Origin: a virus
Taxonomy: Duplodnaviria; Heunggongvirae; Uroviricota; Caudoviricetes
Direction: 5' to 3' (one strand)
DNA: 5,570 bases
IMG/VR virus record: IMGVR_UViG_2703718840_000002
Location: 1-5,570 of that record
Position 1 is the stretch's first letter; each line of letters begins with the position of its first letter. Under the pieces are notes generated by a model. That model made no database searches and was not told the DNA's origin. It saw nothing but the letters and a program-made list of their open reading frames with translations. Positions 1 through 5,570 of this stretch are shown one piece after another. The translations under genes were made by a program, and so were the position numbers.

Positions 1-303
1 GTCACTGACCTTGAGCATATCAGCCAGAGTATCGGCGATATCCTGCGCACACCGGTCGGCTCACGGGTGATGCGTCGTGATTACGGCTCGTTGCTGGCGT
101 CAATGATTGACCAGCCGCAGACCCCGGCGCTTGAGTTGCAGATTAAGGTCGCCTGTTACATGGCGGTGCTGAAATGGGAACCCCGCGTCACCCTGTCATC
201 CGTCACCACGGCGCGCAGTTTTGACGGGCGAATAACGGTCACGTTAACCGGTCAGCACAACGACACCGGCCAGCCACTTTCGTTAACCATCCCTGTGAGT
301 TGA
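1..303 (+). CDS. W: Baseplate wedge protein, P2 gpW / T4 gp25-like; 5' end lies outside the window
   Basis: Frame 1 is open from base 1 to TGA at 301-303. Translation (VTDLEHISQSIGDILRTPVGSRVMRRDYGSLLASMIDQPQTPALELQIKVACYMAVLKWEPRVTLSS...) matches my recollection of P2 gpW. The next gene starts 5 nt after the stop. Confidence 0.85.
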   Translation, partial: VTDLEHISQSIGDILRTPVGSRVMRRDYGSLLASMIDQPQTPALELQIKVACYMAVLKWEPRVTLSSVTTARSFDGRITVTLTGQHNDTGQPLSLTIPVS

Positions 304-307
304 AACC

Positions 308-1216
308 ATGCCGATTATCGACCTGAACCAGCTACCCGCACCGGATGTGGTTGAGGAGCTGGACTTTGAAACCATTCTTGCCGAACGCAAGGCGACACTG
401 ATTTCCCTTTACCCGGAAGACCAGCAGGAGGCGGTCGCCCGTACCCTGACGCTGGAATCTGAGCCTCTCGTCAAACTGCTGGAGGAAAATGCTTATCGTG
501 AGCTTATCTGGCGTCAGCGTGTGAATGAGGCTGCACGGGCGGTGATGCTGGCCTGTGCCGCCGGTAATGACCTTGATGTGATTGGTGCCAATTACAACAC
601 CACACGCCTGATTATCACCCCGGCAGATGATTCGACCCTCCCGCCGACACCGGCCGTGATGGAATCTGACACCGATTATCGTCTGCGTATTCAGCAGGCG
701 TTTGAAGGTTTAAGCGTCGCCGGGTCGGTGGGGGCCTATCAGTATCATGGTCGAAGTGCCGACGGGCGTGTCGCAGATATCTCTGTCACCAGTCCTTCTC
801 CGGCCTGCGTCACCATCTCTGTGCTGTCACGTGAAAATAACGGTGTGGCATCCGAAGACCTGCTGGCGGTGGTGCGCAACGCCCTTAATGGTGAGGACGT
901 CAGACCGGTGGCCGACCGTGTGACCGTGCAGTCTGCCGTCATCGTTGAATACCAGATAAATGCCACGCTTTACCTTTACCCTGGCCCCGAAAGCGAACCC
1001 ATTCGCGCTGCCGCCGTGAAAAAACTGGAAGCGTATATCACGGCACAGCACCGGCTGGGGCGCGACATCCGACTGTCTGCCATTTATGCCGCTTTGCATG
1101 TGGAAGGCGTGCAGCGTGTCGAACTGGCTGCACCGCTGGCCGACATCGTGCTCAACAATACGCAGGCGTCTTTCTGTACCGAATACAGCGTCGTGACAGG
1201 AGGCTCGGATGAGTGA
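308..1216 (+). CDS. J: Baseplate assembly protein J (P2 gpJ family)
   Basis: 302-aa ORF, the same length I recall for P2 gpJ. It sits directly after W and before I in the conserved W-J-I-H-G order. Antisense ORFs across it are shadows. Confidence 0.88.
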   Translation: MPIIDLNQLPAPDVVEELDFETILAERKATLISLYPEDQQEAVARTLTLESEPLVKLLEENAYRELIWRQRVNEAARAVMLACAAGNDLDVIGANYNTTRLIITPADDSTLPPTPAVMESDTDYRLRIQQAFEGLSVAGSVGAYQYHGRSADGRVADISVTSPSPACVTISVLSRENNGVASEDLLAVVRNALNGEDVRPVADRVTVQSAVIVEYQINATLYLYPGPESEPIRAAAVKKLEAYITAQHRLGRDIRLSAIYAALHVEGVQRVELAAPLADIVLNNTQASFCTEYSVVTGGSDE

Positions 1217-1820
1217 TTCGCGACTGCTGCCGACCGGCTCATCACCGCTTGAAGTCGCTGCCGCAAAAGCCTGTGCGGAAATTGAAAAAACGCCGGTCAG
1301 TATTCGTGAGCTGTGGAACCCGGACACCTGCCCGGCAAATCTGCTGCCGTGGCTGGCGTGGTCATTTTCGGTTGACCGCTGGGATGATAAGTGGCCGGAA
1401 GCGACAAAACGCGCTGTTATCCGCGATGCGTATTTCATTCACTGCCATAAGGGCACTATAGGCGCAATCCGGCGTGTGGTGGAGCCGCTCGGCTATCTGA
1501 TTGAGGTGAGGGAGTGGTGGCAGCTCAACGAGGAGCCGGGGACGTTCCGCATCGTTGTTGGCGTGCTTGAGCAGGGTATTACCGAGGAAATGTATCAGGA
1601 GCTGGAGCGCCTCGTTGCTGATGCAAAACCGGCAAGCCGCCATCTGACGGGACTGGCTATCAGTTTAAGTACAACCGGCAACATTTTTGCCGGTGCGGGA
1701 TGCTATCACGGTGACGCCCTGACGGTTTATCCCTACACCCCGGAGGCCATTATTGTCGGAGGGGATTATTTCCCGGCCTCGGCCATTCATTTAATTGATA
1801 ACCTGAGAGTAAACGCATGA
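1209..1820 (+). CDS. I: Baseplate protein I (P2 gpI family)
   Basis: 203-aa ORF. GGAGG at 1198-1202 lies 6 nt upstream of ATG 1209, which overlaps the J stop (ATGAGTGA). The N-terminus MSDSRLLPTGSSPLEVAAAKA... is as I recall for P2 gpI, and the stop overlaps the H start (ATGA). Confidence 0.85.
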   Translation: MSDSRLLPTGSSPLEVAAAKACAEIEKTPVSIRELWNPDTCPANLLPWLAWSFSVDRWDDKWPEATKRAVIRDAYFIHCHKGTIGAIRRVVEPLGYLIEVREWWQLNEEPGTFRIVVGVLEQGITEEMYQELERLVADAKPASRHLTGLAISLSTTGNIFAGAGCYHGDALTVYPYTPEAIIVGGDYFPASAIHLIDNLRVNA

Positions 1821-3124
1821 CAGTGAAATACTACGCCATTCTGACTAATCAGGGCGCAGCACGGCTGGCTAACGCGACGATGCTCGGCAGTAAGCTGAAT
1901 CTGACGCAAATGGCCGTTGGTGATGCGAATGGTGTCTTGCCGACACCAGACCCGGCACAGACAAAACTGATTAATCAGAAACGCATCGCGCCGCTGAATC
2001 TTCTGAGTGTTGACCCGAACAACCAGAGCCAGATTATTGCGGAGCAAATCATCCCTGAGAACGAGGGCGGATTCTGGATCCGTGAGATTGGGCTTTATGA
2101 TGATGAAGGCGTACTCATTGCGGTGGCGAACTGCCCGGAAACGTACAAACCGCAGTTGCAGGAAGGCAGTGGTCGTACCCAGACTATCCGCATGATTCTG
2201 GTTGTCACGAATACCGAAGCTATTACGCTGAAAATCGACCCGTCGGTGGTACTGGCGACCCGTAAATACGTGGATGATAAAGTCCTGGAATTAAAGCTGT
2301 ATGTGGATGACCAGATGAGAAACCACATTGCCGCACAAGATCCTCATACCCAGTATGCGCAGAAACATAATCCGACATTTACCGGAGAACCAAAAGCGCC
2401 GACGCCTGCAGCAGGAAATAACACCACGCGGATTGCGACCACTGAGTTTGTTCAGGCCGCTATTACTGCTCTGATTAACGGTGCGCCAGCCACGCTGGAC
2501 ACACTGAAAGAAATTGCCGCAGCCATTAACAATGACCCGAAATTCAGTACCACCATTAACAATGCGCTGTCAGGTAAGCAGCCACTGGATGAGACGCTGA
2601 CTCATTTGAGTGGAAAGGATGTTGCCGGTCTTCTCGCATACCTTGGTTTGGGAGAAGGCTCTGCATTACCTGTTGGTGTCCCTGTTCCGTGGCCTTCAGC
2701 CACTCCGCCAACAGGCTGGCTGAAATGCAACGGAGCAGCTTTTTCTGCTGAAGAATACCCGGAACTGGCAAAGGCTTACCCGACAAATAAATTGCCAGAT
2801 TTACGTGGTGAGTTTATTCGTGGCTGGGATGACGGGCGTGGTATTGATGCTGGACGTGCTTTATTGAGCCTTCAGGCTGGGATGCTGGAAAAACACCGCC
2901 ATATTGTTGTTGCCAATGATGGTTACGACACAAAAGATGAATGGGAACTGGCTACGATTTTCAAAAAAACATACACACAAGGACGGGGACTTGATGCCAC
3001 AAATACAGGAGGGAGTCTGATCCCATCACCGACACTTCATTCACGAGGGAGTATCGGTAATACTGGCGGGAGTGAGACCCGTCCACGAAATATTGCATTT
3101 AACTTTATCGTAAGGGCTGCATAA
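1817..3124 (+). CDS. H: Tail fiber protein H: conserved N-terminal and shaft region plus a C-terminal tail-collar-type receptor-binding tip
   Basis: 435-aa ORF. The N-terminus (MTVKYYAILTNQGAARLANATMLGSKLNLTQMAVGDANGVLPTPDPAQTKLINQKRIAPLNLL...) is the conserved P2 H / Mu S / P1 S fiber N-terminal domain. The C-terminal part (WLKCNGAAFSAEEYPELAKAYPTNKLPDLRGEFIRGWDDGRG) resembles the phage tail collar domain as in T4 gp12. Start overlaps the I stop. It is shorter than P2 gpH (about 669 aa, from memory). Confidence 0.9.
   Translation: MTVKYYAILTNQGAARLANATMLGSKLNLTQMAVGDANGVLPTPDPAQTKLINQKRIAPLNLLSVDPNNQSQIIAEQIIPENEGGFWIREIGLYDDEGVLIAVANCPETYKPQLQEGSGRTQTIRMILVVTNTEAITLKIDPSVVLATRKYVDDKVLELKLYVDDQMRNHIAAQDPHTQYAQKHNPTFTGEPKAPTPAAGNNTTRIATTEFVQAAITALINGAPATLDTLKEIAAAINNDPKFSTTINNALSGKQPLDETLTHLSGKDVAGLLAYLGLGEGSALPVGVPVPWPSATPPTGWLKCNGAAFSAEEYPELAKAYPTNKLPDLRGEFIRGWDDGRGIDAGRALLSLQAGMLEKHRHIVVANDGYDTKDEWELATIFKKTYTQGRGLDATNTGGSLIPSPTLHSRGSIGNTGGSETRPRNIAFNFIVRAA
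2631..2656. other. Candidate crossover site for a Din-family serine invertase (hix/gix/cix/pix-like), at the constant/variable junction of H
   Basis: TTCTCGCATACC-TT-GGTTTGGGAGAA has 12-2-12 architecture. The two half-sites agree at 10 of 12 positions when one is reverse-complemented. The inner ACC/GGT and outer TTCTC/GAGAA arms resemble hixL (TTCTTGAAAACC AA GGTTTTTGATAA, recalled from memory). It encodes LAYLGLGE, about 156 codons before the H stop. Confidence 0.55.
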
Positions 3125-3732
3125 TGGATAACGCAGTATTAAATAGCGAGTTTATTGCCACGAAGGCGGGGAATATTACCGTCTATAACTACGATGGTGA
3201 AACTCGGGAATATATTTCTGCATCAACTGAATATCTTGCAGTGGGTGTCGGTATTCCAGCATATTCCTGTTTAGACGCTCCTGGTACATATAAGGCTGGT
3301 TATACAATTTGCCGTTCTGTAGATTTAAATTCATGGGAATATGTGCCAGACCATCGCGGTGAAATCGTCTATAACACCGAGACGGGAGATGCCAAAGAAA
3401 TCACAGCACCGGGTGATTACCCCGAAAATACAACCACTATCGCCCCATTAACGCCATACGATAAATGGGATGGTGAGAAATGGGTGACCGATACTGAGGC
3501 ACAGCATAGCGCCGCAGTAGACGCGGCAGAAGCACAGCGTCAGTCACTGATTGATACTGCAATGGCTTCCATTAGTCTGATTCAGCTGAAATTACAGGCC
3601 GGACGGAATCTGACGCAGTCAGAAACCAGCCGACTTAACACGGTGTTGGATTACATTGACGCGGTGACGGCAACAGATACCAGCACCGCGCCGGATGTTA
3701 TCTGGCCTGAACTGCCGGAGACTGCGCAATAA
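3124..3732 (+). CDS. G: Tail fiber assembly protein / chaperone (P2 gpG, lambda Tfa, Mu U family)
   Basis: 202-aa ORF whose ATG overlaps the H stop (TAATG). The C-terminus (...RLNTVLDYIDAVTATDTSTAPDVIWPELPETAQ) carries the conserved Tfa motif (RVDTSTAPDIEWP-like). The central DHRGEIVYNTETG...WDGEKWVTDTEAQ segment also matches the family pattern as I recall it. Confidence 0.85.
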   Translation: MDNAVLNSEFIATKAGNITVYNYDGETREYISASTEYLAVGVGIPAYSCLDAPGTYKAGYTICRSVDLNSWEYVPDHRGEIVYNTETGDAKEITAPGDYPENTTTIAPLTPYDKWDGEKWVTDTEAQHSAAVDAAEAQRQSLIDTAMASISLIQLKLQAGRNLTQSETSRLNTVLDYIDAVTATDTSTAPDVIWPELPETAQ

Positions 3733-3868
3733 ACTCACCATCAATATATAAATCCCCCTGCTGTGTGTCAGCAGGGCATTCTTTCCATATTAATGATGGA
3801 TGGAATCTTCCTTCAGGATTAATTTCCGTTATCTCTTCTACTTTATTTTCTTCAATTCTTGCCCACAT
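3698..3868 (-). CDS. Small hypothetical protein (56 aa) coupled to the glycine-rich ORF; possible remnant or short form of an alternative tail-fiber chaperone (Tfa'/U'-like position)
   Basis: On the minus strand the ATG at 3868-3866 is preceded by GGTGAGGT, 5 nt upstream, and this SD overlaps the TGA of the glycine-rich ORF. Translation is MWARIEENKVEEITEINPEGRFHPSLIWKECPADTQQGDLYIDGEFIAQSPAVQAR. Its 3' end overlaps the G 3' end by 35 nt, convergently. It is far too short for a full Tfa and contains the hairpin, so it is uncertain. Confidence 0.3.
   Translation of the reverse strand: MWARIEENKVEEITEINPEGRFHPSLIWKECPADTQQGDLYIDGEFIAQSPAVQAR
3756..3776. terminator. GC-rich hairpin (8-bp stem, 5-nt loop) between the convergent G gene and the minus-strand cassette; possible bidirectional intrinsic terminator
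   Basis: CCCTGCTG (3756-3763), loop TGTGT, CAGCAGGG (3769-3776) form a perfect inverted repeat 24 nt after the G stop. It is followed by CATTCTTTCC on the + strand and by ATTTATATATT on the minus strand. Caveat: it lies inside the candidate small minus-strand ORF. Confidence 0.35.
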
Positions 3869-3875
3869 ATGAACC

Positions 3876-4316
3876 TCACCAGTAAATATAAACTGCGCCA
3901 TCTGCTCCGGCACCCGACTGACCCGTTGATGAATTAGGACATAATCCAGCTCCGCCACCTCCAGGCCCAACTGCTGATACCGCTTTTCCGTTAGCTGTAT
4001 CTCTGAATGAACCTGCTCCTCCGGGGCCACCACCAGAACCACCATTACCAGCTCCCGATGCGGCAGAAGCAATGGAACCTGGAGAACCTGGCCCAAGCGA
4101 TGTATTAATTGTTCCCCCGACACCAACTGCTCCTAACCCTCCGGAAGGCTGGCCTCCGCTATAGCCTCCGGAAGCTGACATGTAAGTCCCGAAACTGCTC
4201 GAGCCACCATTTTTACCGTTTACAGAAATACCAGACACAGGCGCACCACCGGTACTGGAAAAACTCGGTGTTATCAACAAAGAGTCAGACACACTTGACC
4301 AGACCGCCGCCAGAAC
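3876..4316 (-). CDS. Start-less glycine-rich tail-fiber tip domain on the opposite strand (putative alternative variable C-terminal region of H, H'v); likely a gene fragment
   Basis: Minus-strand frame is open from 4316 to TGA at 3878-3876, with no ATG near its 5' end (only GTG at 4292). Translation is rich in poly-Gly/Ser motifs (...GGYSGGQPSGGLGAVGVGG...GAGNGGSGGGPGGAGS...VGPGGGGAG...GADGAVYIYW), as in fiber or adhesin receptor-binding tips. Position and orientation match the S'v half of a Mu G-type invertible segment. The 5' boundary is uncertain because it overlaps the open + frame of the T remnant at 4186-4316. Confidence 0.5.
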   Translation of the reverse strand, partial: VLAAVWSSVSDSLLITPSFSSTGGAPVSGISVNGKNGGSSSFGTYMSASGGYSGGQPSGGLGAVGVGGTINTSLGPGSPGSIASAASGAGNGGSGGGPGGAGSFRDTANGKAVSAVGPGGGGAGLCPNSSTGQSGAGADGAVYIYW

Positions 4317-4569
4317 TCAAGCCGCCACGTATGGCCGCGGTGGTTATATTCCGGCGACCAGCTCTTATGCAGGCTATCAGGCTTATCAGCCGGTCACGGT
4401 ACCGGCTGGTCGCTCTTATGTGGACCAGAGTAAAAACGAATATCACATCAGTCTGACGGGCGGTACTGCGCCGGGGACACAGCTTGACCGCCAGTTACAG
4501 GATGCACTCGAAAAATACGAGCGGGATAAACGTGCGCGCGCCCGTGCCAGCATGATGCATGACGGTTAA
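4186..4569 (+). pseudogene. T: Tail tape measure protein T, C-terminal fragment only (N-terminal bulk of the gene absent)
   Basis: Frame 1 is open from 4186 (after TAA at 4183-4185) to TAA at 4567-4569, with no start codon. It ends ...LDRQLQDALEKYERDKRARARASMMHDG immediately before the U SD and start, where P2 synteny (T-U-D) places the end of T. The true 5' junction lies somewhere between about 4186 and 4320. Confidence 0.6.
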
Positions 4570-4583
4570 GGAGGTGACGAAAA

Positions 4584-5063
4584 ATGATGCTCGCGTTAGG
4601 TATGTTTGTTTTTATGCGCCAGACGCTGCCACACCAGACCATGCAGCGTGAATCAGATTATCGCTGGCCGTCAAATTCCCGTATCGGTAAACGGGATGCC
4701 TTTCAGTTTCTCGGTGTGGGTGAGGAAAACATCACGCTTGCCGGCGTGCTTTATCCCGAACTGACCGGCGGGAAGCTGACGATGACCACGCTCAGACTGA
4801 TGGCAGAGGAAGGCCGGGCGTGGCCGTTGCTGGATGGCACCGGCATGATTTACGGCATGTATGTCATCAGCAGGGTGAGTGAAACAGGGAGTATTTTCTT
4901 TGCAGACGGCACACCCCGGAAAATTGATTTTACGCTGTCGCTCACCCGCGTTGATGAATCACTGGCCGCGCTTTATGGCGATATCGGTAAACAGGCGGAA
5001 TCGCTCATCGGTAAGGCTGGCAGTATGGCGACCAGATTCACGGGTATGACGGGGGTGGGATAA
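4584..5063 (+). CDS. U: Tail protein U (P2 gpU family)
   Basis: 159-aa ORF (MMLALGMFVFMRQTLPHQTMQRESDYRWPSNSRIGKRDAFQFLGVGEENITLAGVLYPELTGG...), the same length I recall for P2 gpU. GGAGG at 4570-4574 lies 9 nt upstream of the ATG. Its stop overlaps the D start (TAATG). Confidence 0.82.
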   Translation: MMLALGMFVFMRQTLPHQTMQRESDYRWPSNSRIGKRDAFQFLGVGEENITLAGVLYPELTGGKLTMTTLRLMAEEGRAWPLLDGTGMIYGMYVISRVSETGSIFFADGTPRKIDFTLSLTRVDESLAALYGDIGKQAESLIGKAGSMATRFTGMTGVG

Positions 5064-5570
5064 TGCTGGATGCGCTGACATTTGATGCAGGCAGTACGCT
5101 GACGCCGGATTACATGCTGATGCTCGACAGCAGGGATATTACCGGCAATATCAGCGACCGTCTGATGAGTATGACCCTGACGGATAACCGGGGCTTTGAG
5201 GCTGACCAGCTTGATATTGAACTGAACGATGCCGACGGGCAGGTCGGGCTGCCGGTTCGTGGCGCTGTCCTGACGGTGTATATCGGCTGGAAAGGTTTTG
5301 CTCTGGTATGCAAAGGGAAATTTACCGTTGATGAGGTTGAACACCGGGGCGCGCCGGATGTGGTCACCATCCGCGCCCGGAGTGCAGATTTCCGCGGGAC
5401 GCTCAATTCCCGCCGTGAAGGTTCATGGCATGACACCACGCTCGGTGCGATTGTTGAGGCGATAGCCTCCCGTAACAGGCTGGAAGCCAGAGTCGCTCCG
5501 TCACTGGCCGGAATTAAAATCCCACACATCGACCAGTCGCAGGAGTCCGACGCGAAATTCCTGACCCGTC
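5063..5570 (+). CDS. D: Tail protein D (P2 gpD family); 3' end lies outside the window
   Basis: ATG at 5063 overlaps the U stop. Frame 2 stays open to the window end (169 codons, no stop). Translation MLDALTFDAGSTLTPDYMLMLDSRDITGNISDRLMSMTLTDNRGFEADQLDIELNDADGQVGLPVRG... matches my recollection of P2 gpD. The two antisense ORFs (4973..5344, 5110..5529) are shadows. Confidence 0.85.
   Translation, partial: MLDALTFDAGSTLTPDYMLMLDSRDITGNISDRLMSMTLTDNRGFEADQLDIELNDADGQVGLPVRGAVLTVYIGWKGFALVCKGKFTVDEVEHRGAPDVVTIRARSADFRGTLNSRREGSWHDTTLGAIVEAIASRNRLEARVAPSLAGIKIPHIDQSQESDAKFLTR

Follow-up and report, generated by a model that had tools for sequence, protein, structure and literature searches.

A 5.3-kb deletion leaves tail genes U and D of a P2-like Escherichia coli prophage behind a truncated T gene

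In a short stretch of P2-like prophage DNA, the tail genes U and D follow a truncated tape measure gene T. Their frames are open and U has a strong Shine-Dalgarno sequence, which raises the question of whether the two genes have merely survived a very recent deletion or have been kept for a new use. We consider it highly probable (roughly 0.88) that a deletion has recently scarred the P2-like prophage at this locus, leaving U and D as promoterless orphans that owe their intactness to recency and not to a new use.

Gene layout of the contig and extent of the deletion

The window, that is, the whole stretch of 5,570 bp that was analyzed, is the entire draft contig LOOF01000044.1 of assembly GCA_001576305.1 (locus L005, identical). 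The source contig and the relatives encoding H were found by a look-up of the H protein. The sister assembly, GCA_001575455.1, carries the locus (L004) on the 163-kb scaffold LOOG01000007.1, where the chromosome flanking the prophage is 100% identical to E. coli pflB-focA, indicating that the prophage host is E. coli. An intact relative with an identical H protein, L003 (Logan assembly of SRR11451197), served as the reference. The ORF list, Pfam, megablast, and gene calls identified the P2-type late genes of a P2-like (Peduovirus) prophage on the contig; Rfam gave zero matches for the window. The features are as follows, with position 1 as the first base of the window.

1-303, plus strand: 3' part of W
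308-1216, plus strand: J
1209-1820, plus strand: I
1817-3124, plus strand: H
2631-2661, plus strand: left crossover site within H, one arm of the 31-nt inverted repeat of L003
3124-3732, plus strand: G-type tail fibre assembly gene (Pfam PF02413, E = 3.7e-32)
3698-4255, minus strand: convergent alternative cassette
3698-3901, minus strand: small cassette gene, presumed assembly/chaperone gene (RefSeq WP_071556292.1 at L001 8979-9182)
3756-3776, no strand assigned: GC-rich 8-bp hairpin between the convergent assembly genes (terminator scan)
3876-4255, minus strand: Hv2', the 3' 380 nt of a glycine-rich tail-fibre C-terminal cassette (alignment to the H end of L001)
4251-4255, no strand assigned: deletion junction with GGTAC microhomology (overlap of the two alignments to L003)
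4251-4569, plus strand: T', what is left of the tape measure gene T at its 3' end (the final 105 codons and the stop codon)
4568-4577, plus strand: native Shine-Dalgarno sequence of U, AAGGAGGTGA, the same as in intact relatives
4584-5063, plus strand: U, full length, 159 aa (PF06995, E = 3.7e-44)
5063-5570, plus strand: D codons 1-169 of 387, running off the contig end (PF05954)

Sequence homologous to T is present from 4251 onward; it aligns with P2 21979-22297, so that the final 319 nt of a 2,448-nt gene are left. The first-pass annotation, made from the letters of this DNA, had set the start at 4186; translation revealed that the codon at this position simply follows a stop in the reading frame of T, and the stretch 4186-4250 is antisense tail-fibre cassette instead of T. 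The truncation itself was borne out, with the last 105 of 815 codons remaining, and the full-length T found upstream of U in a P2-like T-U-D cluster is absent. The first possible start in the T frame is a GTG at 4420, and T' is therefore a dead fragment. U was correctly described as intact: its match to PF06995 spans the whole profile (positions 1-120 of 120), many intact prophages encode exactly the same 159-aa protein, and it differs from P2 gpU by 1 amino acid. The strong Shine-Dalgarno sequence attributed to U is the native one, retained at its place. The claim that D is intact can be made only for codons 1-169 of 387, which are open; approximately 486 nt beyond the contig end are absent from both draft assemblies. 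In the sister scaffold, a 299-N gap opens exactly at the window end and is followed by the last 170 nt of D and by ogr, which is identical to P2 ogr. The 3' end of D in the sister scaffold is intact, and the segment missing from both drafts is probably a collapsed or filtered repeat contig.

Alignment to L003 placed window 1-4255 at L003 8185-12439 and window 4251-5570 at L003 17742-19061, with 5,307 bp of L003 missing between window 4255 and 4256. The order running between the blocks in L003 is invertase, sheath, tube, TAC, T (815 aa), U, D (387 aa), and ogr. The two endpoints read CACC-GGTAC-CAAC and CTGG-GGTAC-TGGA, and the 5-bp GGTAC is common to both. Deleted from the window are approximately 267 nt of the 5' part of the Hv2 cassette including the right crossover site (L003 12676-12706), a Din-type DNA invertase gene (resolvase/HTH_7 in L003), the Ogr-dependent PF promoter region, FI (sheath), FII (tube), E/E', and T codons 1-710 (87% of T). 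Hv2 homology stops at 4255. The loss of FI through the 5' part of T, as proposed from the letters, was confirmed relative to both L003 and P2. The loss of the invertase gene and of one crossover site had no part in that first account.

Compared with the P2 F operon (AF063097.1), the T'-U-D' block is 97.0% identical to P2 21979-23298 (P2 D lies at 22791-23954), and the sister assembly has the same T-U-D-ogr order with an identical ogr protein; the window differs from P2 in being without PF, FI, FII, E/E', and 87% of T. In the intact relatives, an invertible fibre cassette and an invertase take the place of the Z/fun region of P2. Of these intact E. coli P2-like prophages (among them L003; L001; L008, GCA_039604075.1), L003 shares the identical H and the same cassettes with the window, whereas the intact prophages retain the 5.3 kb with the invertase, PF, sheath, tube, E/E', and full T.

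The 31-nt inverted repeat of L003 pairs 10815-10845 with 12676-12706. The window keeps only its left arm within H; the right arm is deleted, and no partner arm was found anywhere in the window. The invertase gene (resolvase/HTH_7) is present in L003, L008, and L001 and is absent from the window. Two opposed C-terminal cassettes are present, Hv1 with G on the plus strand and Hv2' with the small gene on the minus strand, and in the present orientation of the segment the G-type gene closes the V-W-J-I-H-G operon. The stretch 3876-4255 and the end of H in L001 (E. coli 2018-11-3CC) share 99.8% identity; in L001 the segment lies in the other orientation and the glycine-rich cassette is joined to H. 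In L002 the Hv2 cassette is annotated as 'glycine-rich domain-containing protein'. Since the invertase and one crossover site are lost, the tail-fibre switch is frozen in the orientation that attaches the collar-domain cassette to H (H-Hv1/G). The constant 5' part of H followed by alternative C-terminal cassettes, each with an assembly gene, is also the plan of Mu G/gin, P1 C/cin, and e14 P/pin, and the crossover sites are of the TTCTC..ACC..GGTTT..GAGAA type of the Din-family switches; unlike those switches, the window is without an invertase gene and one crossover site. The small cassette gene presumably encodes a chaperone or assembly factor of the glycine-rich fibre tip; Pfam returned no family for it or for its longer ORF. 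A 115-aa gene call at 3698-4045 on the minus strand overlaps the end of Hv2 by 170 nt in another frame, and RefSeq has just a 67-aa hypothetical protein at 3698-3901.

Distribution and origin of the junction

Short draft contigs such as this one, from genomes in which repeated P2-like sequence is probable, could carry a chimeric join of two prophage regions, and the junction was weighed as such an assembly artefact. It is almost certainly not one. The identical junction lies in the 163-kb scaffold of the sister assembly and is spanned at 100% identity by a contig of GCA_000954045.1 (JYHP; L006, window 677-4368) and by the Logan assembly of run SRR3492230 (L007, window 1469-4280). The 5-bp overlap is much too short for a de Bruijn mis-join, and L007 crosses the junction with no branching on the cassette side. 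As several isolates share the junction, the deletion has been in existence for some time within a lineage.

Outside these records the junction was not found in the collections searched. By megablast, none of 5,426 complete E. coli genomes covered at least 80% of window 3600-5570, and no phage or plasmid record spanned the junction; exact junction patterns had zero matches in GTDB species representatives and JGI metagenomes; and an exact-protein look-up of the junction-spanning ORF (3876-4292, minus strand) returned no record. The feature is real but ordinary: a defective P2-like prophage has recently undergone a deletion that is specific to its lineage.

The contigs break inside conserved P2 genes, at window 5570, at L004 13755-14053, and at the ends of L006 (window 4368) and L007 (window 4280), which suggests a second P2-like prophage or T-U-D copy in these genomes. 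The end of L007, a Logan unitig, lies 30 nt past 4250, the last unique base; a second copy of the 3' sequence of T with another left context would give this distance at k = 31.

With respect to mechanism, one illegitimate recombination at the GGTAC microhomology would remove the 5,307 bp, and we infer slippage or illegitimate recombination. A site-specific alternative, in which the phage's own Din-family invertase acted on pseudo-crossover sites, has in its favor that the deletion begins inside the invertible segment and takes with it the invertase gene and one crossover site. The endpoints, however, match the 26-bp crossover core at only 12-13 of 26 positions, which is background for random 71-mers of L003 (mean 12.0, 95th percentile 14), and the true site lies approximately 240 nt from the left endpoint. 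Moreover, the sister-assembly prophage (L004, 1-1500) contains an unrelated second deletion with the same signature, 2,275 bp (P2 1855-4129) lost at a 5-bp CGAAC microhomology. Invertase-mediated deletion was rejected on the endpoint scoring and is very unlikely as an origin; endpoint scores at background together with the 5-bp signature of the second deletion make microhomology-mediated illegitimate recombination the best explanation.

The second deletion, known from the sister assembly, joins the 3' third of the terminase gene P to codon ~17 of the capsid gene N, removing two-thirds of P, the PP/PO promoters, O, and the start of N, and is consistent with ongoing, progressive decay. Because the sheath, the tube, E/E', and most of the tape measure are lost, the prophage cannot build a tail. 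Its annotation should state that it is defective, that sheath, tube, and tape measure are lacking, and that the fibre switch is frozen; T' and Hv2' should be labelled pseudogene fragments.

An R-type tailocin or co-opted contractile tail cluster was also considered and rejected: the sheath, the tube, and 87% of T are deleted. The ogrK/D' remnant of K-12 and the defective P2-like prophage of E. coli B are likewise reduced by deletion, with the D-ogr end beside the attachment site; the K-12 remnant is far more eroded, whereas the prophage of the window keeps most late genes unmutated. The literature on P2 late operons and defective prophages offered only general context.

Promoters and possible expression of U and D

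In P2, the promoter PF drives FI-FII-E-E'-T-U-D under Ogr (PMC3931495). The region upstream of FI in L003 (13324-13415) is orthologous to the GenBank-annotated P2 PF activator site and F-operon transcription start, and this PF orthologue falls within the deleted interval. The native late promoter of U and D is lost, as the first-pass annotation had anticipated, and the window contains neither PF nor the FI, FII, and E/E' genes of a functional P2 F operon.

A replacement promoter was sought in two ways. The exact Ogr-type dyad TGT-N12-ACA, the pattern initially proposed, had zero matches in the window, but this is an insensitive test that also misses the genuine late promoters of the intact relative, which read TTGTGTCA-N-(C/A)(C/G)A. 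With one mismatch allowed, the dyad had four matches on the plus strand of 3700-4600, approximately the number expected by chance, and none of them had a TTGTGTCA left arm or a plausible -10. The sigma-70 search, likewise proposed at the outset, gave a single plus-strand site upstream of U (CTGACC-16-CATAAT, 3918-3945), which is weak at 9 of 12 positions, and the total of sigma-70 sites in the region was within shuffle expectation. Judged by these signals, nothing points to a dedicated promoter for U and D, although they may be transcribed incidentally at a low level. From the sequence, we infer that the two genes are transcriptionally silent.

The obstacles placed earlier on the read-through path, a convergent cassette and a hairpin, are both present. 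The RNA fold of 3725-3800 had an energy of -20.8 kcal/mol (z = -3.4), and the hairpin at 3756-3776 is a candidate bidirectional terminator. PV in the sister scaffold is identical to that of L003; expression of U and D would be incidental at most, by PV read-through past this hairpin and approximately 480 nt of antisense cassette. Within the loop and stem of the hairpin (3762-3771), GTGTGTCA agrees at 7 of 8 positions with TTGTGTCA, the left arm common to the activator sites of the late promoters in the intact relative. It has no matching right arm or convincing -10 and also occurs in intact relatives, and the likeness is probably a coincidence.

We consider it very unlikely that U and D are still expressed and used, whether through PV read-through or a fortuitous promoter in the antisense cassette, and whether their products supplement, or exchange with, those of a co-resident P2-like prophage or serve the host after co-option. 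Several observations are compatible with such use: the Shine-Dalgarno sequence of U is strong and its translation independent, the sister assembly retains both PV and ogr in intact form, the plus-strand tail of the hairpin is T-poor (CATTCTTTCC) so that termination may leak, and the contig breaks (the end of L007 at 4280 and the N gap in D of L004) suggest a second T-U-D copy. However, the Shine-Dalgarno sequence and the reading frames are 100% ancestral and say nothing on selection, the promoter signals are no higher than chance, a co-resident intact phage would supply its own U and D, and a further deletion that inactivates the prophage is present in the sister assembly. In addition, from what is established on P2 tail assembly, gpU and gpD are not known to have a role in the absence of tube and sheath, which counts against their use. 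A narrower form, in which Ogr-dependent PV read-through crosses the hairpin and U and D are kept because they provide a P2-like prophage or satellite in the same cell with tail-hub proteins in trans, is very improbable; if it were true, the derivative would be a helper-dependent, semi-domesticated element and not simple debris.

Sequence identity to intact prophages and mosaicism

The recent-deletion reading is carried by the T'-U-D' block (4251-5570, 1,320 nt), which is 100% identical to that of five intact prophages, L008, L012, L015, L016, and L017. The pflB-adjacent site is also that of three of them (L008, L012, and L016), whose flanks are 99.9% identical, and of L017. Of the two explanations that had been offered for the intact genes, the very recent deletion is supported by the zero substitutions over 1,320 nt, which are consistent with a short time span despite the several isolates that share the junction. 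Co-option gains nothing from the Shine-Dalgarno sequence and the open frames, which are unchanged ancestral sequence and carry no information on selection. The comparison of dN/dS for U and D with intact relatives, proposed as a check, is uninformative because of the 100% identity: with zero differences the ratio is undefined for the deletion lineage, and the values of 0 to 0.08 obtained against P2, L011, and L013 reflect the functional-phage history before the deletion. Intact ORFs and a strong ribosome-binding site beside a deletion do not indicate selection when the sequence is identical to that of functional relatives. The locus is a dated, well-defined example of prophage decay via microhomology-mediated deletion, and it has little weight beyond annotation.

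Within the T'-U-D' block the window differs from L003 at seven positions, all of them in a 50-nt stretch of T' (4289-4338). P2 matches the window at 100% over 4251-4300 and the five intact prophages match it throughout, so these positions reflect ordinary polymorphism among T alleles; they are not a sign of post-deletion decay.

The remainder of the window is not uniform in its relation to L003. In window 706-1634 there are 38 differences from L003 in J and I, nearly all synonymous, whereas window 1635-4255 (H, G, and the cassette) has two differences in 2.6 kb; the contrast looks like a mosaic recombination boundary, which is typical of P2-like phages. The window and the sister scaffold differ at only four positions (165, 234, 252, and 352), in W and the start of J, and are identical over 353-5570; at all four positions the sister scaffold agrees with L003. 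These differences possibly represent a recombination patch or an effect of a second prophage copy near the contig end. Near-identical prophages occupy two sites, with L004, L008, and L012 beside pflB and L003, L009, and L015 beside a U32 peptidase gene followed by a two-component system.
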